48,668 nt of DNA from a virus (lineage: Duplodnaviria; Caudoviricetes). Below are positions 93 to 19,189 of the stretch, piece by piece. Position numbers and translations under genes: made by a program. The number at the start of each line of letters is the position of its first letter. The stretch's first letter is position 1. A model generated the notes under the pieces. The model ran no database searches. It was not told where the DNA came from and saw only the letters and a program-made list of their open reading frames with translations. The stretch lies in IMG/VR virus record IMGVR_UViG_3300037467_002484, positions 1-48,668 of that record; one strand, written 5' to 3'.

Positions 93-468
93 GGCCGGCT
101 CCGGTGGTGAAGGGGGCGAGGGCGGCTTCAAGGGCGTGACGGATGGCTTCACGCTTGTTGTGGGAAACGCCGTCGTAAAGGTCATCAAATGCCTCGACAG
201 CCGTATCCACCATCGCCTCCGTCACCCCGCCCTGTGCGGCTTGCCGCTTCTCCTTCTCTGCAGAAAGTGCGGCTAGAGCTTCGGCGTACTGCCGCGTCGG
301 ACAAAACGTTGATAGGGCTTCCCAGAACGCTCGGGCAGCCTCGTCCGGCGCGTATTCGCCGTGGTACTCCACTCGGCCATCGGGGTGAACTGTGACCATA
401 CTCTTGCCGTCGCGACGGATTTCAATCAGCGGTGCCGGAGCACTACCGCCTAGAAAGATGCTACTCAT
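85..468 (-). CDS. Hypothetical phage protein
   Basis: ATGA overlap with deaminase stop; MSSIFLGG start; VTEAMVD.A motif typical of small early phage proteins. Confidence 0.7.
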   Translation of the reverse strand: MSSIFLGGSAPAPLIEIRRDGKSMVTVHPDGRVEYHGEYAPDEAARAFWEALSTFCPTRQYAEALAALSAEKEKRQAAQGGVTEAMVDTAVEAFDDLYDGVSHNKREAIRHALEAALAPFTTGAGHE

Positions 469-959
469 GACCGTTTCCTCTTGCAAAGAAGGAGCCACTC
501 ACGACCCTGCGTGAGCCGCCAGAGATTCTTGGCATCGCTGTGCGGGTATAGCTCCCCAAACACGATACGCCGGCATCCGGTGTTCATCAACAGCTTCACG
601 CACGTGACGCACGGTGAGCACGTCACGTAGCACGTATGGATCTCGCGAACGTCCTTGCACTGCAGCAAAGCGTTCTGCTCGGCGTGGATTGCCTGGCAGG
701 CGTCAAGGTTCGTCCCACTCGGGGACTTGGCGCCTGCACAGGCATTGGGATACGTGATTTCGATGCTCCGGTCCAGATGAAGCATTGGCTGCTCGGTGTT
801 GCAGTGGGGAAGCCCTGCGGCCACCCCGTTGTACCCGGTGGAAAGCACGTGGCCGTCCTTGTCGACCAGCACGCAGCCCACCTGACGCCGGCAGCAGGTG
901 CCGCGACGAGCGGTCACCTTGGCCAGTTCCAACCCCCACTCGTCGCGGTTGATCCTCAT
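465..959 (-). CDS. dCMP deaminase / ComEB-like Zn-dependent cytidylate deaminase
   Basis: CCRRQVGCVLV, STGYNG, HAEQNAL and SPCVTC Zn motifs; GGAGG RBS before ATG 959. Confidence 0.92.
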   Translation of the reverse strand: MRINRDEWGLELAKVTARRGTCCRRQVGCVLVDKDGHVLSTGYNGVAAGLPHCNTEQPMLHLDRSIEITYPNACAGAKSPSGTNLDACQAIHAEQNALLQCKDVREIHTCYVTCSPCVTCVKLLMNTGCRRIVFGELYPHSDAKNLWRLTQGREWLLLCKRKRS

Positions 960-960
960 G

Positions 961-1791
961 TCACCGAGCCTCCCACCAGCGGTGACCTTCCTTGGCTGGT
1001 TGGTCACGGATCCTGCGTAGCGTGGCCTCTAGGAAATCAGGCTCAAGGTGCATGCCTGGAGGCGTGCTCGACTGCTCGCCAAACAGCGGCCTGGTCGTCT
1101 TGACGCATACCCTTGCCGATTCGACGTCTCGTCCGTACAGATGGGAGCTTGCGGCCGTCAGGTACAGCAGACCCGGAATGACGATGTCCTCGTTTCGAAG
1201 CTTATCCTGGATCATGCCGGCGGTATGCTTGTTGACGAACGCGCACACCATGTGGCCGATCATCGAGAAGTTGAACACGTCGTATGGCATCCCCAACCAG
1301 ATGTCGCTCGACCGCATGAACACATGGGCGTTCAACCGCTGCTTTCGGATCTGGAAGAACAGCGACACGGTGCACGGCACATCCTTCGTCGCCGGCGGGC
1401 ACTGTCGCCAGAACGTCATGCCAGCCTGCCGAGAGCTCGGGTCCTCGACCAGCTTGCGCACGACGTAGGGCAGCTGCTTGACGAACTCTGGCCCATAGGC
1501 TCCGAAGAACGTCTTGCCGTCGTCCGAGAACTGGCTGATCTTGCTGTTGTACGGCGCAATCGTCTCGACCCGGTCGTCGCCGTTCAGGATCCAGAGCGCC
1601 TCGGCCGCCATGAACCGGTAGTTGAGGGAGCGCTCCGGCACGGTCAGGACCGGCCGTATCATGTCGATGGTGAAAGTTGCCTGCGGCAGCTCGAGCGTAT
1701 CGATCCCACGCGGGCTGATGCGCTCGCCGAACCGGAGCAAGTTGTCCAGCCCACGGAGCCAGACGCTGTTGAAGTTGAACAGGTCACTCAT
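961..1791 (-). CDS. Thymidylate synthase-superfamily enzyme, predicted dCMP (hydroxy)methyltransferase
   Basis: AEALW, SSRQA, catalytic DVPCT (C140), MRSSDIWLGMPYD (D171 at the E. coli N177 position), SHLY. Confidence 0.88.
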   Translation of the reverse strand: MSDLFNFNSVWLRGLDNLLRFGERISPRGIDTLELPQATFTIDMIRPVLTVPERSLNYRFMAAEALWILNGDDRVETIAPYNSKISQFSDDGKTFFGAYGPEFVKQLPYVVRKLVEDPSSRQAGMTFWRQCPPATKDVPCTVSLFFQIRKQRLNAHVFMRSSDIWLGMPYDVFNFSMIGHMVCAFVNKHTAGMIQDKLRNEDIVIPGLLYLTAASSHLYGRDVESARVCVKTTRPLFGEQSSTPPGMHLEPDFLEATLRRIRDQPAKEGHRWWEAR

Positions 1792-2722
1792 GACACAGCT
1801 CCTTCAGCCGTTGGATAAGTCCGTAGTCATCTCCGGCATGGAAGCGCTTCCAGGCTTGTGGATGGATTGCTCCCTCGAATGAAAGGCCCAGCTGGATCAG
1901 CTTGTCCTGCGCCTTGCCGCCAAGCGCGAAGATCTTCTCGGCGTTGGCGTAGATCCAGTAGTCATGGCCCGGATTGGCGAACTGGTCGGCGTTGACCCAG
2001 CACAGGCGCATCTCGTCGATGCCGGCGTCGATCAACTGCTGCGTGAACCAGCGGCTGCAGCCCTGCCCGCTGAATGACGCGAATGGCCACTGGAAGAACG
2101 GGTCTTGGTTCTTGCGCTCGGCGAAGCTATCGCCCACCAGCAGGATCTTGGCCTTGAGGTTGCCGGCCGACCGCATGGTGGTCTTGTGCGGCAGCGTCAG
2201 CTCGCGAAGCGATTCGACGTCACTCATCAACCCATGCCAGGCGCCGTTGACCGTGTAGTCGTAGTCGGCCATCGGAATGGCCGTGGCCATCTGGTCGTAG
2301 GCCGCAGCAACGCACAGCAGCTGATCAACGTCTTTGAGGTACTCCTCGCCCTTGCGGGCCTCGAAGTTGGCCTTGATGTTGTCGATCCCTGGGTTGCAGC
2401 GCACCACGACTGGCTGGCAGCGGAGAGCCAAGCGCTCGAGCATCCGAACATCGGCCGGATCCAGCCGGTTGGCTCCGCCGCGGAAGGCGTCGCCGTACGG
2501 CTTCTCACTGAGCCAACAGCGGTCCATCACCACCTCTTGGTAACCGAGCACTGCCGGCATCATCTGCTCGGCGTACATACGAGCCAGGCCGTCGGTCACC
2601 ATGGGCAGTGGGCCGAGGTGGACGTAGCGGGCGCCGACCGTCTGGGCGTAGTGCATAGCCACCGTGGACTTGCCGGAGCCGTCCGGGCCCTCAAAGATGG
2701 TCAGCCGCTTACTGGTCGTCAT
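1784..2722 (-). CDS. dNMP (thymidylate-like) kinase fused to C-terminal uracil-DNA-glycosylase-superfamily domain
   Basis: IFEGPDGSGKST P-loop and VMDRCWLSE kinase motif; C-terminal ILLVGDS..WPF..SG, IFALGGKA and HPQ resemble UDG-fold motifs. Confidence 0.8.
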   Translation of the reverse strand: MTTSKRLTIFEGPDGSGKSTVAMHYAQTVGARYVHLGPLPMVTDGLARMYAEQMMPAVLGYQEVVMDRCWLSEKPYGDAFRGGANRLDPADVRMLERLALRCQPVVVRCNPGIDNIKANFEARKGEEYLKDVDQLLCVAAAYDQMATAIPMADYDYTVNGAWHGLMSDVESLRELTLPHKTTMRSAGNLKAKILLVGDSFAERKNQDPFFQWPFASFSGQGCSRWFTQQLIDAGIDEMRLCWVNADQFANPGHDYWIYANAEKIFALGGKAQDKLIQLGLSFEGAIHPQAWKRFHAGDDYGLIQRLKELCHE

Positions 2723-3311
2723 GGCAGGTGTCCTCGGCAATGGCGCCGTCAAAATCCATGTAGTCAGCCCGGTTGTAGCCGTGCCGGTTGAGAATCTGCT
2801 CGGTCATGGGTCCCACCCAGCCCTCGGGCTTGGTAACGTCGACTTTGTGACCGCGCTTCGTCTCGCCGCGGACCTTGGACATGTTAGCCCGCTGGACATC
2901 ATCCCACAGCTCCTGCCAGGGAAGGCCCAGCTGGACCGCAGTACCGATGGCCACGTAGACGAGGTCGATCAGCGCGTCGGCCTGCTGCGCAAGGTCCTGC
3001 TCGAACCCGGAGTCGGGTTCGTAGATGCCGAGCCGCTTGGTCAGCGAGTAGCCACTGGCCTCGGCGAACTCGTCGAGCTCCTCCTTGAGGAACTGGATCC
3101 GCTCGCCCAGCTTGCGCTTGGTCAGGTGGACCGGCTGCTCGTGGACCAGCAGGCCGAACTTCTGGTGGAACGCCTTCACGTCCGAGAAGTGGGTGTGGCT
3201 GAACGTCGGCACCATCTCGACGGCGAGATGCACAGGGATCCGAGCGATGGTTTTGGTTTCCGGCGCAACCGGATCCTGCGAGGCAACGGCCTCATCGGTC
3301 TCGTTTGCCAT
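2709..3311 (-). CDS. MazG-like / PRA-PH-like NTP pyrophosphohydrolase
   Basis: VKAFHQKFG, KEELDEF, DALIDLVYVAIG, VQRANMSK, KPEGW motifs. Confidence 0.85.
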   Translation of the reverse strand: MANETDEAVASQDPVAPETKTIARIPVHLAVEMVPTFSHTHFSDVKAFHQKFGLLVHEQPVHLTKRKLGERIQFLKEELDEFAEASGYSLTKRLGIYEPDSGFEQDLAQQADALIDLVYVAIGTAVQLGLPWQELWDDVQRANMSKVRGETKRGHKVDVTKPEGWVGPMTEQILNRHGYNRADYMDFDGAIAEDTCHDDQ

Positions 3312-3312
3312 A

Positions 3313-4125
3313 TCAGCGCCCTCCCTTCTTCGCCACCTTGGGGGCGTTGGTCGGCTTACGGCACACCCACAGGTTGTTACGCGCGTGATCGGCGTGCAGC
3401 GGCCCGAAGATGTTGCTGATGGCGTCGCTGTCGAAGTACTTGCTCAGCGCATCGCGGACCAGCTTGATGGCCGGCTGCAACTTGACCGGATCCACACCGA
3501 GGTCGTCGGACGGCTCGACCTTGCCGATGTGCTTGATGTCCATGAACGTGCCGAACCGCCGCTCCACCACGAAGCCGGCCTTCTCGGTCGCCTTCTGGAG
3601 CTCAGGCACGGTGTACTCATGGATGTGGTTCGCTGCGTGGCGCTTGCCATCGTAGCAGGGCGTCGACATCAGCATCACGCCGCCGGGACGCAGCGCCTCG
3701 AAGCAGGCCTTCAGCATCTTGGCGCCGTGCTCGACCTTCATGTGCTCGATGACTTCGTAGTGGACCACCACGTCGAAGCCGCCCGGCTGCTTCTTGAGCA
3801 GCTCCTTGTAGCGCTCGACGAAGTTGAACTCTCCCAGGAAGGTGAGGCGCTGACTGTTGGAGGGCTTGAGCTTGTTCAGGTCAACGCCGGTGTAGGTGTT
3901 CACGTGCGCCGCCGCGCCGCCGGTGAGGATCTTGCTGAGCGGACGATCTTCGCCGCAGCCGATTTCGAGGACATGGTCCTTGGCCGTGATGAAGTTGCGG
4001 GCGAAGCTCCAGCGCCAGAAGTGGGCCGAGTAGTCTCGGTGGAGGGTGCGACCATGACCAGCTTCGTGCAGCTGGGTGGTGTCATAGTCGCGCTGGTCGC
4101 GCTGGATCTCTTTGCTCTTCGGCAT
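3313..4125 (-). CDS. Class I SAM-dependent methyltransferase (small-molecule type)
   Basis: VLEIGCG, TGVD, FDVVVHYEVIEHM, LRPGGVMLMSTP; AAGGGGA RBS. Confidence 0.88.
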   Translation of the reverse strand: MPKSKEIQRDQRDYDTTQLHEAGHGRTLHRDYSAHFWRWSFARNFITAKDHVLEIGCGEDRPLSKILTGGAAAHVNTYTGVDLNKLKPSNSQRLTFLGEFNFVERYKELLKKQPGGFDVVVHYEVIEHMKVEHGAKMLKACFEALRPGGVMLMSTPCYDGKRHAANHIHEYTVPELQKATEKAGFVVERRFGTFMDIKHIGKVEPSDDLGVDPVKLQPAIKLVRDALSKYFDSDAISNIFGPLHADHARNNLWVCRKPTNAPKVAKKGGR

Positions 4126-4154: not shown

Positions 4155-4184
4155 AAAACCCGGCGCCTAGATGACGCCGGGCTT
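4155..4184 (-). terminator. Rho-independent terminator
   Basis: CCCGGCG...CGCCGGG stem followed by TTTT on the minus strand in an intergenic gap. Confidence 0.65.
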
Positions 4185-4209: not shown

Positions 4210-4833
4210 TTACTTCGGCTCCGGGACCTTCTCGCCCTTCTTGATCAGGTCGTTGCGGTACCACTTGACGTAGCCGCGCTTGTCGTCGCCCAGGCCGAAC
4301 TTCTTCTGGACCTTGTCGAAGATCTGGTCGTCGGTCAACTTGCCCTCGCGGATCAGCTCGCGGAACATGCCGGCAGCGGTCTCGCCCTTTTCGGCCTTCG
4401 GCGCCTTGGCGGCCGGAGCCTCCTTCTTGCCAGCCGGCTTCTTCGCCGCAGGCTTCTTCTCGACGGGCGCCTTGTCCGTCTTCTTTTCGGGCTTCGCGCC
4501 CTTGCCGCTCTTCGTGGCCTGGTTCGTGGCCTTCTTCTTCGTTGCCATGTCAATCTCCTCTTGGGTCAGCGTAACGAGTTGGCCAAGCGCTTGCATGGCC
4601 TGTTGGGTTGCACCGGTCAGTTGGGCATACTGGGCATAGAGCCGAGCCGCCTTTTCCACCGGGTAGTCCGGGAGCTCTTTGTTGAAGGTCTCCACGAATT
4701 TGGCTGCGGGCCACTTCTCGAGGTCGAAGCCGTCCTCGACGTTGATCCGCAGGAAGGTAACCTCAGTCTTGCTTCGATCGACGGCGAGACAGGTGTGCCT
4801 TTGCCGATCGACGAACACCGCTGCGCTTTTCAT
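4210..4833 (-). CDS. Lys/Ala/Pro-rich putative DNA-binding protein; possible internal start at 4548
   Basis: Histone-H1-like KKPAAKK tract and C-terminal helical domain ending YVKWYRN; GAGGAG RBS before internal ATG 4548. Confidence 0.75.
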   Translation of the reverse strand: MKSAAVFVDRQRHTCLAVDRSKTEVTFLRINVEDGFDLEKWPAAKFVETFNKELPDYPVEKAARLYAQYAQLTGATQQAMQALGQLVTLTQEEIDMATKKKATNQATKSGKGAKPEKKTDKAPVEKKPAAKKPAGKKEAPAAKAPKAEKGETAAGMFRELIREGKLTDDQIFDKVQKKFGLGDDKRGYVKWYRNDLIKKGEKVPEPK

Positions 4834-5062
4834 GCTCAATCCTGTTCCTGATGGCTTCCGCGTGGACCGTCAGCTCGAAGATGCCGGCAATCACCGCCTT
4901 GGCTTCATCAAGGTAGATCGGCCCATAGATGCCGAAGTTGATCTTCACATCGCCGTGCTTAGCTTGCACCGACGCGACGTTCCTGGCGGTCCCCACGTGG
5001 AGGACCAGACGCTCGACCTCGTCAGTCGACTCGTCAACGATCTCGACGGTTGTTTTTGTCAC
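4763..5062 (-). CDS. Hypothetical protein
   Basis: GTG start with GAGGA RBS; phage-like codon usage. Confidence 0.6.
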   Translation of the reverse strand: MTKTTVEIVDESTDEVERLVLHVGTARNVASVQAKHGDVKINFGIYGPIYLDEAKAVIAGIFELTVHAEAIRNRIEHEKRSGVRRSAKAHLSRRRSKQD

Positions 5063-5198
5063 GTTCCACGATCCTCACGTGCTTGACGCCCGAGCCGTTG
5101 AGCTGCTTTGCCATCGTGACCACGTGCTCGAGCGTGTCAGTTTCCTTGGCCAGTAGCTTCTGCTTGCTGCCGTCGCGATAGTGCGCCTCGACGATCAT
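5034..5198 (-). CDS. Small hypothetical protein (54 aa, not in ORF track)
   Basis: ATGA overlap with upstream stop; GGAG RBS; MIVEAHYRDGSKQKLL...DR; fills the gap. Confidence 0.55.
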   Translation of the reverse strand: MIVEAHYRDGSKQKLLAKETDTLEHVVTMAKQLNGSGVKHVRIVERDKNNRRDR

Positions 5199-5647
5199 GA
5201 GTGCTTCTCCTTCTTAGGAAGCTTGCCGTTACGGCGGAAGTAGCTTCGGTACCACGCGGGGTAGTGATCGTGCCGGCCATCGTCGGGGAGCTTGTACTCA
5301 GCCTTGATGGTAGCCAACACGTCCTTGTTAGACTTGCCTTCTTGGAACAGCGCGAGACAGCGCTTGGCGATCGTCATCTTGGTCGGCTTGGGCGGCTTGG
5401 GCGCCGGCACCGGGTTGAGATGGCGTTTCGGCTTCTGGACCTCGTCGATGACCACCTCCGCGTCAGCGAGCGGAGTCCTCATCTTCTCGAGCTCCTTGCC
5501 GCTTGGCGTGGTCAGCTGCCACTCGCCAGGCCCGAGACACAGAATGTAGTCGTTGTACTTCTCGCGCGGCACGCCAAGCTTCTTGAGAGCCTGTGTGCAG
5601 GAATCGCGCCGTGTCAAGACGCGCGTGGCGCCCCTGTTTGTGCTCAT
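5195..5647 (-). CDS. Hypothetical protein with C-terminal WYR helical domain (paralogue of 4210-4833)
   Basis: GAGGAGG RBS before ATG 5647; C-terminus LFQEGK...YPAWYRS. Confidence 0.7.
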   Translation of the reverse strand: MSTNRGATRVLTRRDSCTQALKKLGVPREKYNDYILCLGPGEWQLTTPSGKELEKMRTPLADAEVVIDEVQKPKRHLNPVPAPKPPKPTKMTIAKRCLALFQEGKSNKDVLATIKAEYKLPDDGRHDHYPAWYRSYFRRNGKLPKKEKHS

Positions 5648-5696
5648 CAGTTTCCTCCTCAGCCGAGGGTTGTGGCGCATCCGTGCGCCGTGGTAA

Positions 5697-14792: not shown

Positions 14793-15698
14793 TTAGCGAT
14801 CGTCCTCGTCTCGGAAGCCCAGAAACACAGGGAATCGCGGCCGGTCCTTGGAGCCCGTGGGGAAGTACTTGTACTTGACGTGGAGGCCGATGAGACCAGA
14901 TCGAACCTTCCAGAGATTCATCCGTTCAGTAGTGGTGAAGCCGGCGCCGATCTTGAACTCGACGCCGTCCTCGGTCTTGACCACTAGTGCACCGAGCATC
15001 TGCATACCTTGCTTGCCTGCCTTGGCCGATGACCGCTCTAGTTGGCCGAGCGCGTTGCGTGTCGCTTCGTTGCCGTTGTGCATGAACTCCTCGAAGCCGA
15101 TGATCCTGGCCTCAGCGTCCATGAACCGCTTCAGCTTGACCAGCTTGCCCTCGCGCACCGACGACCGGCCGAACTTGTAGGTCCCGAACGGGTCGCGGAT
15201 CATGGCGCCCTCGTAGCCGCGCTCCAACCAGTCTTCCTCGAGGCGCTGAAGACCGACCTCGTCGTTGACGTGCTCGTGCCAGACCGGATGCACCCGATCC
15301 TTGAGAGGCCGGATCTTGTTGCAGGTGGTCTTCAGCCGCTGGATCATCTTCTTGTAGCGGTGAATGAACGCGACGCCAGGGTTCGAGAAGTCGTCGAACA
15401 CGTGGAACAAGACGTTCGGCTGGCCGTCGTAGGCCATGACGCCGGAGACCGTGTTGCGGTAGCACTTCGGATGGGTGGCGTCGCCGACGATCAGCTCGCC
15501 ATCCAAGCCGTTCAGCTCCATACGACCGAACAGGTTCTGCGTGTAGGTGTTTCGGATCGGCTTCAGGTTGCGGGTCAGCGCGACGCCATCGATCACCACG
15601 AGCCGGACGCCGTCCAGCTTGGGTGACATCACGCACGGGAACTTGGGCAGCTGGCCGGGATCCAGAGATCCAGCAAGCATGGGGCGGAAGTCGCTCAC
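14793..15698 (-). CDS. lig: ATP-dependent DNA ligase
   Basis: PMLA, KLDGVR (KxDG), LDGEL, GYEGAMIR, KLKRF, RFPVF; GTG start overlapping upstream stop. Confidence 0.92.
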   Translation of the reverse strand: MSDFRPMLAGSLDPGQLPKFPCVMSPKLDGVRLVVIDGVALTRNLKPIRNTYTQNLFGRMELNGLDGELIVGDATHPKCYRNTVSGVMAYDGQPNVLFHVFDDFSNPGVAFIHRYKKMIQRLKTTCNKIRPLKDRVHPVWHEHVNDEVGLQRLEEDWLERGYEGAMIRDPFGTYKFGRSSVREGKLVKLKRFMDAEARIIGFEEFMHNGNEATRNALGQLERSSAKAGKQGMQMLGALVVKTEDGVEFKIGAGFTTTERMNLWKVRSGLIGLHVKYKYFPTGSKDRPRFPVFLGFRDEDDR

Positions 15699-16537
15699 AG
15701 CTTGATTACTCCATTCTCGATGAGGTGGCGCGCTTGCACCCACTCGGAATTGAAGTTGGACGGGAAGAACTTGGGACTGGGCAGTCCGCTTCCGCAGCTG
15801 GGCCTTGCGATGGCCTGGTGCTCGAACGGAGACGCATGCATGGGATCGCCACTCAGCTTCTTCACCGTGTTGATCGCCTTCTCGACGTCCGAGCGCTGCG
15901 ACTCGTCGAACGGCTTGTAGCTCACCCACGCGCAGCGCGCCGCCGACAACGCCAGCAGCATCCGCTGGTTGTACATACCCGCCTCCTCGTCGGAGATGTA
16001 GGGCGGGTGCCACTCGTTGCCGATCAGCTTCTTGGGCTTGTTGACGATCATCTGGTTGCGCATGAGGACGGCGAGCTCGTGGAACTCCGGCTGAGCGTCG
16101 GGATGGCAGCGCAGCTTGAAGAAGTTATCCCACTCGGTGCCAGAGATGACGCCATGCACGTAGGCGAACGGCTCAAGCATCCGGTTGGCGTACTGCTTGT
16201 GGACGCCGAGCTCAGCGAGCGATGCCGCTGCGTGCGCTGCCTGGATCGCCGCCTGGCGCCAGCGGGTCTCAGCCCTGAGCGACTCCTCTTCCTCGAGCGG
16301 GTCACCGCCCTGCATGCCCGGCTTGTTGCGTGTGAACGCGTGCGGAATGAAGGGATCGGCGCTCACCTCCTCGATGAGACGCGACACCGGGACCGCCCGG
16401 CTCGACCGATAGTTGCGGCTGAGGACGCGATGTGTGTTGACCTCAGCGAGGATGAACCGAGGGAAGCACACCTGGAACGTGGTCAGGCGCGACAGGCCGT
16501 TGAACGAGTCGGCGATGATGATAGCGGAGGTCTTCAT
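15695..16537 (-). CDS. thyX: Flavin-dependent thymidylate synthase ThyX-like protein (phage variant)
   Basis: PRFILAEVNTHRVLSRNYRSSRAVP (variant RHR-x7-S motif), HKQYANRMLEP, FFKLR, AQPEF, HASPFEHQA. Confidence 0.78.
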   Translation of the reverse strand: MKTSAIIIADSFNGLSRLTTFQVCFPRFILAEVNTHRVLSRNYRSSRAVPVSRLIEEVSADPFIPHAFTRNKPGMQGGDPLEEEESLRAETRWRQAAIQAAHAAASLAELGVHKQYANRMLEPFAYVHGVISGTEWDNFFKLRCHPDAQPEFHELAVLMRNQMIVNKPKKLIGNEWHPPYISDEEAGMYNQRMLLALSAARCAWVSYKPFDESQRSDVEKAINTVKKLSGDPMHASPFEHQAIARPSCGSGLPSPKFFPSNFNSEWVQARHLIENGVIKL

Positions 16538-17910: not shown

Positions 17911-18205
17911 CCTCAGCCCCTCCTGTTTTGCCGGTGCCTCCGCATGAGGCGCAGCGCATGGTGATGGTGTTCCAGCCGCGCGTCTTCTCTCGCTTGCCGG
18001 ATCCGTTGCAGTCCGGGCAGGGCTTCGGCTTGGCCAGCTCCTGCTCGATCTTGCGATGGGCCTCACGCAGCTGGATGAATGTGTCAGCGTCGCCGCCCTT
18101 GTCTGGATGGTGCTTCGACCTCAGGTCGCGCCACCGCTCGGTCAACTGCTCGAGCGTACACTCCTCGCCGAGCTCCAGCAGCTCGTACGCCTCGCTGAGT
18201 CTCAT
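17900..18205 (-). CDS. J-domain (DnaJ-like) protein with CxxCxGxG zinc finger
   Basis: AYELLEL, HHPDKGGD (HPD motif), CPDCNGSG and CASCGGTG. Confidence 0.88.
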   Translation of the reverse strand: MRLSEAYELLELGEECTLEQLTERWRDLRSKHHPDKGGDADTFIQLREAHRKIEQELAKPKPCPDCNGSGKREKTRGWNTITMRCASCGGTGKTGGAEDEE

Positions 18206-18393
18206 GGCTGCCTCCTTGGCATCTTCCTCGGTCGGGCAGGGAGGGTTCCTCCGTCCTTGCCGCCGATGAACATCAGAACCTCGCGCACGGCCGCGTTTTG
18301 AGGGAGCTTCTGGATCCTGCCGCCGTTGGCTAGGAACTCCTCGACGTCTTTGGCCAGCTGCTCTCGAGCGTGGCCGTGGCGAGTCGTGCTCAT
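18202..18393 (-). CDS. SutA-like putative RNA-polymerase-binding protein
   Basis: REQLAKDVEEFLANGGRIQKL resembles my recollection of the Pseudomonas SutA core RDALAKAMEEFLSRGGKVQEI. Confidence 0.65.
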   Translation of the reverse strand: MSTTRHGHAREQLAKDVEEFLANGGRIQKLPQNAAVREVLMFIGGKDGGTLPARPRKMPRRQP

Positions 18394-18396
18394 GGA

Positions 18397-18972
18397 TCAA
18401 CCCACCTTGTCCGGGCCGAAGTGCTTCTCGAACTCACGGTTGTCGCCGTCAGCCGCCTCGCCAGCAAGCGCGAAGTACGCTGCACCATCCTCGTAATCGT
18501 CCGGGTTGTGGCCGCCGGCCGAGGCACGCGCCATCTTCAGGACGACCATGAACTGCCAGCCCTGCACCTCGGTCAGGTGGGTACCGAACATGGCGTTGAA
18601 CGCCTTGACGGTCCGTGCCATCGAGCGCTCGCCGCCGAGGCAGTCGCGCGAAGCGGCTCGGGCAGCAATGTGCTCAGCGCCAGCGGTAAGGATCATCGGA
18701 GCCGTGACCGGCGCTGGCGCCTTTTCAGGCTGCGACTTGTCCACGTCCATCATCGCCTGCTCCTGCTGCTCGATTTCCTGAGCGACGCGGAGGACGTGGT
18801 TGCTTTCGCTCATCGCAGCTTTGATGATTTCGGAACCGCGACGGCTGTTGAGCAGGTCAGCGATGGCCAAGACGACGCGGTGATCGGAGGCGACGGCTTG
18901 CTTGAGCTCGCCGGGGTTGAGGATGTCCAGCTTGTGGTGCTTGGAAAACGTTACATCTTTCTTGCCAGCCAT
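18397..18972 (-). CDS. DUF6378-domain protein
   Basis: ERSMARTV.AFN, GW.FM..LK.AR, DDYED.AAY.AL.GE signature. Confidence 0.78.
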   Translation of the reverse strand: MAGKKDVTFSKHHKLDILNPGELKQAVASDHRVVLAIADLLNSRRGSEIIKAAMSESNHVLRVAQEIEQQEQAMMDVDKSQPEKAPAPVTAPMILTAGAEHIAARAASRDCLGGERSMARTVKAFNAMFGTHLTEVQGWQFMVVLKMARASAGGHNPDDYEDGAAYFALAGEAADGDNREFEKHFGPDKVG

Positions 18973-18973
18973 G

Positions 18974-19189
18974 TCAGGCTCCATTTGTGTCGATGAATCC
19001 CATCGGATGACGGGTGATTTGCGCGTCGTCGGCAGGAGACTTGGGACCGACCACCTCGATGCTGAGCTTGGGGTCCGGAACGGATCCGGAACCCCAGTGC
19101 AGCGTGACGGTGAGCATCGCGCCGCTCTTGAAGTTCAGCTTGAGGTGGTTGTTGTCGTGCTCGTAACCAGACACCTCTTCGCCGATCAT
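18974..19189 (-). CDS. Hypothetical protein
   Basis: ATGA overlap with upstream gene; MIGEEVSGYEHD. Confidence 0.6.
   Translation of the reverse strand: MIGEEVSGYEHDNNHLKLNFKSGAMLTVTLHWGSGSVPDPKLSIEVVGPKSPADDAQITRHPMGFIDTNGA

Follow-up and report, generated by a model that had tools for sequence, protein, structure and literature searches.

The locus analysed here poses a question: Which base would a phage put into its DNA with a cassette that combines a SAM methyltransferase, a nucleotide pyrophosphohydrolase, a kinase fused to a glycosylase-like domain, a homologue of thymidylate synthase (TS) and a deaminase? ORF calling and a Pfam profile scan of the window, namely the whole 48,668-nt stretch of viral DNA that was analysed, found these genes as five ORFs, all on the minus strand: a class I SAM methyltransferase of 270 residues (3313..4125; Methyltransf_23, E 3e-13), which is the candidate hmC O-methyltransferase; an all-alpha NTP pyrophosphohydrolase (NTP-PPase) of MazG/DR2231-like type (2709..3311; PRA-PH, E 9e-17); a fusion protein (1784..2722) with a P-loop dNMP-kinase fold, YorR/TMK-like, in residues 1-175 and a UDG fold in residues ~176-312; the TS homologue (961..1791; PF00303, E 1.5e-18), a predicted dCMP hydroxymethylase; and a dCMP-type zinc deaminase (465..959; PF00383, E 5e-21). 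They form a conserved, coupled operon. The tight minus-strand packing described in an earlier note on this DNA is borne out by the ORF calls, the Pfam matches and junctions of 1-14 nt: methyltransferase and NTP-PPase, like TS homologue and deaminase, are separated by a single nucleotide, whereas the kinase fusion overlaps the NTP-PPase by 14 nt and the TS homologue by 8 nt. SD-like purine-rich stretches precede all five starts, with ATG 2722 favoured over an upstream TTG for the kinase fusion and ATG 959 over GTG 1007 for the deaminase. The synteny search that the note had proposed found the gene order conserved in many phages, including the cultured Stenotrophomonas phage AXL3. Its five-gene extent needs to be qualified: the five genes are coupled, but the operon continues beyond position 465, the next ORF (468-85) overlapping the deaminase by ATGA. 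Moreover, its inventory of pyrimidine genes had overlooked a ThyX-like FAD-dependent thymidylate synthase (15695..16537, minus strand), unlinked to the cassette, which the Pfam scan recovered.

The TS homologue retains the residues of the TS fold (catalytic C140, R160, S161, H217 and Y219), and alignment places D137 at the position of ThyA L143, T141 at H147, D163 at D169 and D171 at N177, in agreement with the dCMP-type Asp noted earlier. Counted over 74 clusters at 90% identity, the N177 position is Asp in 74/74 and the L143 position in 73/74, the latter following a published heuristic whose position was mapped here ungapped from the catalytic Cys; rules for such product-diagnostic residues appear in the consulted portions of PMC13326640 and PMC8670742. 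By alignment, Asp stands at 143 also in T4 gp42 and MilA, and Asn in the Xp12 5mdCMP synthase. MilA is the best PDB match of the homologue (E 6e-19, vs 1e-11 for true TS). Other enzyme types were considered and rejected. The 5-hydroxy-dCMP synthase of RB69/DLP3 type needs Asn at ThyA 169, where this protein has D163 and Asp is retained in 74/74 clusters; canonical ThyA and dUMP hydroxymethylases require Asn at 177, where Asp is found, and the homologue scores far below the TS family cut-offs; the Xp12-type dCMP methylase is marked by linkage to DHFR, which adjoins TS in Xp12, and by the lack of an acidic residue at 143, as against the acidic D137 and the absence of DHFR here (none in the phage's own genome, 0/50 relatives). 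A quick, unfinished TS tree is uninformative on product type because T4, Xp12 and MP1412 lie on saturated branches. Asp at both 177 and 143, the lack of DHFR and the separate ThyX together point to 5hmdCMP, and not 5mdCMP or dTMP, as the likely product formed from dCMP. Whether or not the methyl cap discussed below proves right, public annotations probably mislabel this family when they call it thymidylate synthase or dUMP hydroxymethylase.

Published digests of AXL3 DNA bear directly on this prediction. Of 37 enzymes, only TasI and Tru1I cut it, all 35 tested enzymes with G/C in their sites being resisted (PMC7504290). The AXL3 genome carries 13 KpnI and 14 Eam1105I sites, and its DNA resists both enzymes (PMC7504290), which cut the 5mC-containing DNA of Xp12, do not cut T4gt hmC DNA, and partly cut the DNA of AXL1, an Xp12 relative handled in the same laboratory as AXL3 (PMC9206674), albeit with digestion for 1 h as against 30 min for AXL3 (PMC7504290, PMC9206674). 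For nearly all shared enzymes the AXL3 pattern agrees with that of T4gt hmC DNA. This evidence weighs upon the possibility that the phage follows Xp12, its TS homologue making 5-methyl-dCMP for a DNA containing 5mC. The common architecture of NTP-PPase, TS and deaminase, together with the resemblance of the motif that surrounds the catalytic Cys, would agree with such a pathway, but Asp instead of Asn at 143 in 73 of the 74 clusters, DHFR in none of the 50 relatives and the resistance of AXL3 to KpnI and Eam1105I render it quite improbable. The note had left the choice between 5-methyl- and 5-hydroxymethyl-dCMP open; the hydroxymethyl alternative is the one that stands, on D137, D171, the missing DHFR and the AXL3 resistance, while the 5-methyl one is disfavoured. 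We consider a cytosine-modification pathway well supported, and replacement of C in the phage DNA by 5-hydroxymethylcytosine very probable. The digests do not distinguish plain from methylated hmC; a single hint comes from XmnI/PdmI, for which 21 AXL3 sites remain uncut and T4gt is cut partially, in different laboratories. XbaI was dropped as evidence, having a single site in AXL3, and AhdI is reported to cut Xp12 completely in the text of the paper and partially in its table. Palindrome avoidance is uninformative, CTAG alone being clearly depleted.

The remaining enzymes of the cassette would serve the nucleotide pools. The NTP-PPase carries the all-alpha EExxE...D motifs and a KPEGW tail, is DR2231-like and is 35% identical to the enzyme of the Xp12 cassette; it would act as dCTPase and/or dUTPase, the dCTPase label coming purely from context because DR2231, its nearest solved relative, is described as dUTP-specific. 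The deaminase has the zinc-site residues H92, E94, C117 and C120. ThyX, present in 12/50 relatives, would provide a source of dTMP that does not depend on the TS homologue, and offers an ordinary route from dCMP through dUMP to dTMP. The idea that part of the modified nucleotide is deaminated to dTMP fares poorly, because the predicted TS product is hydroxymethylated. Could the whole block then be devoted to an ordinary supply of dTTP (dCMP to dUMP to dTMP to dTDP)? The genes are so read, as dTMP synthesis, in the papers on AXL3 and Pseudoxanthomonas phage PW916, and likewise in that on AXL1 (PMC7504290, PMC9206674), and a DR2231-like NTP-PPase may well be a dUTPase; yet Asp replaces Asn177 in every cluster, ThyX is encoded separately, the TS scores fall far below cut-offs and AXL3 resists every G/C-site enzyme tested, so that this reading seems very remote.

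A different or mixed novel pyrimidine deserves more attention, though we deem it improbable: the deaminase could be selective for the modified nucleotide, giving hmdU too, or the methyl group could lie on N4/O2 or on hmU. In the consulted portion of a phage deaminase screen (bioRxiv 2024.12.05.627091), 34/56 active enzymes preferred 5mC over C, mSCD-B5 deaminated 5hmdCTP, and selectivity for methylation was polyphyletic and not readable from sequence; in addition, two relatives carry a 5hmdU-DNA-kinase domain and ThyX is found in just the 12 relatives mentioned. Against it, the PDB matches place our deaminase nearer to S. mutans-type and T4 dCMP deaminases, with 29% identity to that of Xp12, and AXL3 DNA is cut at AATT and TTAA, from which it follows that T is not heavily decorated, even if plain hmU would still permit such cutting.

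If hydroxymethylcytosine is thus the favoured base, what is the methyltransferase for? The note had seen no glycosyltransferase, and this is confirmed by the Pfam scan, without any glycosyltransferase family match among the scanned ORFs of the window, and by tblastn, without any match to T4 beta-glucosyltransferase in the window; Glycos_transf_1 (PF00534), the sole such family searched across relatives, has 0/50 matches. The TS homologue is present at 74/74 evaluable methyltransferase loci (6 of the 80 loci being too short to evaluate), and the methyltransferase in 49/57 evaluable clusters found through TS, one locus of the genome collection being not evaluable for TS. Of the 8/57 clusters that lack it, 4 have a PLP-enzyme trio, 2 a 5hmdU-DNA-kinase domain and 2 no more than a C5-methyltransferase-like gene, HMUDK_hel occurring in 0/42 methyltransferase-positive vs 2/8 methyltransferase-negative genomes. 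The quick TS tree suggests that these cassettes are scattered and do not form one clade. C5-methyltransferase-like genes, found in 7/57 cassettes, sit badly with full replacement of C. HTVC200P has kept only kinase and TS.

The methyltransferase itself has invariant R38, E124, E127, H128, STP154-156, H167 and E170, with R38, E124, E127, H128 and H167 kept in 80/80 proteins. These include a Glu-Glu-His-His motif like that of UbiG and Hen1: EhhEH (EVIEH), STP, a downstream HxxE with its distal His and an N-terminal Arg are common to them, the equivalence of H167 and R38 to Hen1 being by position and the His pair matched by eye, as HMMER left it unaligned. The gene context differs from that of Hen1/UbiG. 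Searched against the PDB at E<=1e-5, the family profile matches 11 sequences, comprising 3 UbiG, 6 named as Hen1 or small-RNA 2'-O-methyltransferase and 2 'type 12' chains that we take to be bacterial Hen1. In the structure search CgnL comes first (Z 19.0), UbiG ranks 25 (Z 17.6) and HEN1 ranks 48 among the best 50 (Z 16.9, rmsd 3.2, 181 aligned); N-, C- and O-methyltransferases are tied, no subfamily is singled out and the fold is generic. The motif suggests O-methylation, though it is unspecific: 13 weak matches with EhhEH are unrelated bacterial methyltransferases outside the cassette, and it has been said to resemble that of small-molecule methyltransferases (PMC1397878).

It may be, then, that the DNA contains plain 5hmC and that the methyltransferase targets RNA ribose in Hen1-like fashion, phosphate, protein or a by-product. 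The Hen1-like motif and matches, which suggest ribose O-methylation, the generic fold and the T4gt-like digests of AXL3 speak for it. Conversely, Hen1 motif VI, TPNxE(F/Y)N, is not kept, position 157 being C/V/A, and the protein scores 26 bits vs a cut-off of 340 with the Hen1 model TIGR04074 (37 vs 103 with the UbiG model); above all, the strict linkage with TS and the apparent swap with genes of base-tailoring type make an unrelated target hard to explain. We therefore regard this reading as rather unlikely, and O-methylated hmC as the best single guess for the role of the candidate methyltransferase. Taken jointly, hmC replacement and its methylation to 5-methoxymethylcytosine receive from us a probability of about 0.4. 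The literature searched, which covered few subscription papers, had nothing relevant on methoxymethyl-cytosine as a base or on O-methylation of hmC by a phage enzyme; the papers that came up dealt, by title and abstract, with T-dioxygenases or with TDG, or had no cytosine term among those listed.

In the pathway with 5-methoxymethylcytosine, the steps with good support would run as follows: the TS homologue would convert dCMP to 5hmdCMP, the kinase would phosphorylate it, the NTP-PPase would remove dCTP/dUTP and the deaminase would turn surplus dCMP into dUMP for ThyX or a host enzyme. With weaker support, the methyltransferase might then O-methylate hmC using SAM, and the UDG-fold domain might remove U or hmU. 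The parallel with other tailoring of hmC makes replicated DNA a slightly more probable substrate for this methylation than the nucleotide. Such a base would protect the phage from restriction enzymes, among them ones directed against hmC or glucosyl-hmC.

The note had also proposed the dNMP kinase-UDG fusion, and its UDG fold is borne out structurally. In the AlphaFold model (pLDDT 95.6) residues ~176-312 (about 2197-1787) align with UdgX (Z 10.3, rmsd 3.1, 128 aligned) and with T. maritima UDG (Z 10.0, rmsd 3.1, 130 aligned), even though the Pfam scan of the window gave no UDG match for the fusion and a profile match to UDG is weak (E 0.012). The pocket residues Phe, Asn and His-Pro are present (F214 in 119/119, N244 in 117/119, H287 in 119/119). 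In family 4 UDGs motif A is GE(A/G)PG and four Cys hold an Fe-S cluster; the tail reads G-[ED]-x-F instead, and 114/119 tails have only 1-3 Cys. The model presents a minimal family-4-like UDG fold with putative glycosylase activity.

Among known systems, the T4 hmC pathway (gp42, gp56, gp1, cd and alpha/beta-glucosyltransferases) has the same logic, gp42 having Asp143 and Asp177. It differs in that TS identity is only 22%, a DR2231-type NTP-PPase replaces gp56 (no gp56 match in the window), the YorR-like kinase is fused here to a UDG fold, and a SAM methyltransferase is present without any glucosyltransferase. The 5mC cassette of Xp12/Pamexvirus has the same order of NTP-PPase, TS (Asp177) and deaminase, yet has Asn143, Pro147 and DHFR, and lacks the methyltransferase and kinase-UDG. 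In the searched passages of PMC8670742, the MetaGPA 5hmC carbamoyltransferase cassettes show TS, PRA-PH and dCMP deaminase co-occurring in modified contigs, with a transferase capping the hmC hydroxyl where the candidate here is a class I methyltransferase; 'methyltransferase' at word start has 0 occurrences in those passages. The closest comparison is with AXL3 (gp31-gp27) and PW916, which have an orthologous five-gene block and also ThyX, with identities of 80-82% for the methyltransferase and about 50% for TS; both are siphoviruses, whereas this genome has contractile-tail genes. That a widespread family of phages, of sipho-, podo- and myovirus type and with AXL3 included, carry 5-methoxymethylcytosine for C by means of a metal-motif hmC O-methyltransferase is our tentative proposal. 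If true, it would extend the repertoire of natural DNA bases by one so far undescribed, reveal a sugar-free way of hiding hmC from modification-dependent nucleases, provide a SAM-dependent 5hmC-labelling enzyme useful for epigenetic sequencing and account for the unexplained restriction resistance of AXL3.

Finally, a hairpin lies ~30 nt upstream of the methyltransferase (4156..4184, minus strand). The hairpin reported earlier is present, with a 12-bp stem, but its role as a terminator finds little backing, since the 87-nt intergenic stretch has a folding z of -1.73 (10/200 shuffles equally good) and the hairpin is absent from the terminator-scan listing of the window; it could be a weak terminator or an mRNA-stabilising element. 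Hairpins of at least 8 bp occur upstream of 22/79 methyltransferase genes vs 8/74 TS genes, only a modest enrichment.

The five genes of the cassette (4125-465, minus strand) follow one another with gaps of 1 nt or short overlaps, which bears out the tight packing described in the earlier note, whose domain assignments also stand; the hairpin that it had placed 5' of the cassette is present, although weak as a terminator candidate. The window is an entire virus record of 48,668 bases, is 100% complete by CheckV and encodes a family A polymerase, helicase, ligase, terminase, portal and contractile-tail genes, its early/replication region including, on the minus strand, an ATP-dependent DNA ligase (14793-16013), a SutA RNAP-binding domain (18205-18393) and DUF6378 (18397-18984). 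A minus-strand ORF with no assigned function (85-468) is translationally coupled to the deaminase gene (959-465), and among the first 20 loci has a homologue only in the closest relative, L006.

Matches to the methyltransferase (4125-3313) occur in only five of 50,697 phage records, namely the Stenotrophomonas phage AXL3 (twice), the Pseudoxanthomonas phage PW916 and two spring viromes, and the synteny search proposed earlier returned identical gene order in all five. In IMG/VR, 352 stretches encode relatives of the methyltransferase and 347 relatives of the thymidylate synthase (TS) homologue; the best 80 of each were compared, so that counts favour close relatives. The TS homologue is found at all 74 loci with enough flank among the best 80 of 352 for the methyltransferase. 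Searches with TS queries alone gave 87 loci in 58 clusters, 57 of them evaluable, with the NTP-PPase in 57, the deaminase in 52, the methyltransferase in 49, the kinase in 43 and the UDG tail in 31. Conservation within the cassette is highest for the methyltransferase, with a median identity to the window of 73% versus 51% for the TS homologue. Strong matches in the genome collection lie mostly on contigs of 34-54 kb or shorter, in MAGs, several with the same cassette.

What does the synthase (1791-961) make? By the rules given in PMC13326640 and PMC8670742, dCMP is the substrate where ThyA position 177 is Asp, the product is hydroxymethylated where position 143 is acidic, and Asn at 169 signifies 5-hydroxy-dCMP. 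The corresponding window residues, D171, D137 and D163, are kept in 74/74, 73/74 and 74/74 clusters, respectively. Positions 143/177 are Asp/Asp in T4 gp42, Asn/Asp in the Xp12 methylase and Asp/Asn in the YuA-type enzyme; among solved structures, the best match is MilA, a CMP hydroxymethylase. Methylation uses up folate, but hydroxymethylation does not; DHFR adjoins the TS gene in Xp12, and none was found in the window genome or in 50 relatives. Since ThyX is present (16537-15695; also in 12/50 relatives), the TS homologue is not needed for dTMP. The marine, T7-like Pelagibacter phage HTVC200P has only the kinase and a synthase with the same Asp143/Asp177 (L004:6508-7786), annotated as thymidylate synthase.

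Digests of relatives bear on the same question. Of 37 enzymes tried on AXL3 DNA only TasI and Tru1I cut, and its authors leave the modification undefined and interpret the block as dTMP synthesis (PMC7504290); the genome has 13 KpnI and 14 Eam1105I sites. PMC7653180 describes 5mC DNA of Xp12 as cut completely by KpnI and partly or fully by AhdI, and hmC DNA of T4gt as uncut by both, while AXL1, an Xp12 relative, was partly cut by KpnI and Eam1105I in the AXL3 laboratory, in a longer digest than that of AXL3 (PMC9206674). The AXL3 pattern speaks against both canonical DNA and 5mC. Of the two products first proposed, 5-hydroxymethyl-dCMP is favoured over 5-methyl-dCMP by D137/D171, the absence of DHFR and these digests. 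That an hmC-type base replaces C is, we judge, highly probable; the AXL3 pattern does not distinguish hmC from capped hmC.

The kinase domain of the kinase-UDG fusion (2722-1784) is TMK/dNK-like, nearest to SPbeta YorR; a kinase of the same kind adjoins the hydroxy-dCMP synthase of DLP3. The tail has a compact UDG fold with Phe, Asn and His-Pro, without family-4 motif A and Cys cluster; this tail may act on U/hmU as a glycosylase or, being inert, serve only for binding. A 130-aa protein (L023:9220-9612 and relatives) substitutes for the fusion gene almost exclusively (57 clusters: kinase only 41, 130-aa protein only 13, both 2, neither 1). It matches the C-terminal half of the Xp12 NTP-PPase fusion (QNN97215, L174:46207-46980; 35%, E 1e-20) and may fill in for the kinase. 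The window NTP-PPase (3311-2709) is DR2231-like; the title of a cited paper calls DR2231 dUTP-exclusive, but the Xp12 orthologue, 35% identical to the window's, works for a genome in which all C is replaced. Either dCMP or the modified nucleotide may be the substrate of the deaminase (bioRxiv 2024.12.05.627091).

In its model (pLDDT 89.6), the methyltransferase has the Rossmann fold of class I enzymes, and its structural neighbours are small-molecule enzymes, tied. UbiG and Hen1-type O-methyltransferases are its best PDB matches in profile searches, and family cut-offs were reached for neither. R38, E124, E127, H128, H167 and E170 are invariant in 80/80, and the matching residues of Hen1 bind metal. 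The six window residues mirror those named for HEN1 in PMC1397878; the EhhEH motif is only suggestive, because unrelated bacterial enzymes share it. Genomic context is the stronger argument. It suggests that the methyltransferase performs the tailoring of hmC. Each of the eight TS clusters lacking it has some other putative modifying gene: four have a PLP enzyme and its two partners, two a 5hmdU-DNA-kinase domain and two a C5-MTase-like gene. The PLP trio and kinase domain occur in no methyltransferase-positive cluster, and GT-1 glycosyltransferases in 0/50 genomes. Against this reading, five cassettes contain both the methyltransferase and the C5-MTase-like gene, and HTVC200P has neither. Overall, we give capping to 5-methoxymethylcytosine a probability of roughly 0.4. 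Neither this base nor its enzyme was found described in a literature search of limited coverage; the components and logic of the cassette are already known, and the base is possibly new.

In cassettes lacking the methyltransferase, the trio of SGNH-like gene, 380-aa gene without assigned function and PLP enzyme (L153:3769-6826; also L011, L154, L167) is a candidate second route of hmC tailoring. The 5hmdU-DNA-kinase domain found together with a dCMP-type hydroxymethylase (L150:1924-3042, L171:1615-2529) suggests that hmC is phosphorylated in the DNA or that the pathway branches to hmU. The C5-cytosine-methyltransferase-like gene, inside 7/57 cassettes (L007:5110-6465, L008, L009, L019), has an intact PC motif and an altered SAM motif, and would be odd if all C were replaced. 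Directly upstream of the window cassette lies a Lys/Ala-rich gene (4210-4839, minus strand), kept in many relatives, whose C-terminal domain matches two PHROGs that the tail of the C5-MTase-like protein also hits, although the pairwise E between the two is only 0.037; judged by eye, the gene at 5195-5680 (minus strand) resembles it.
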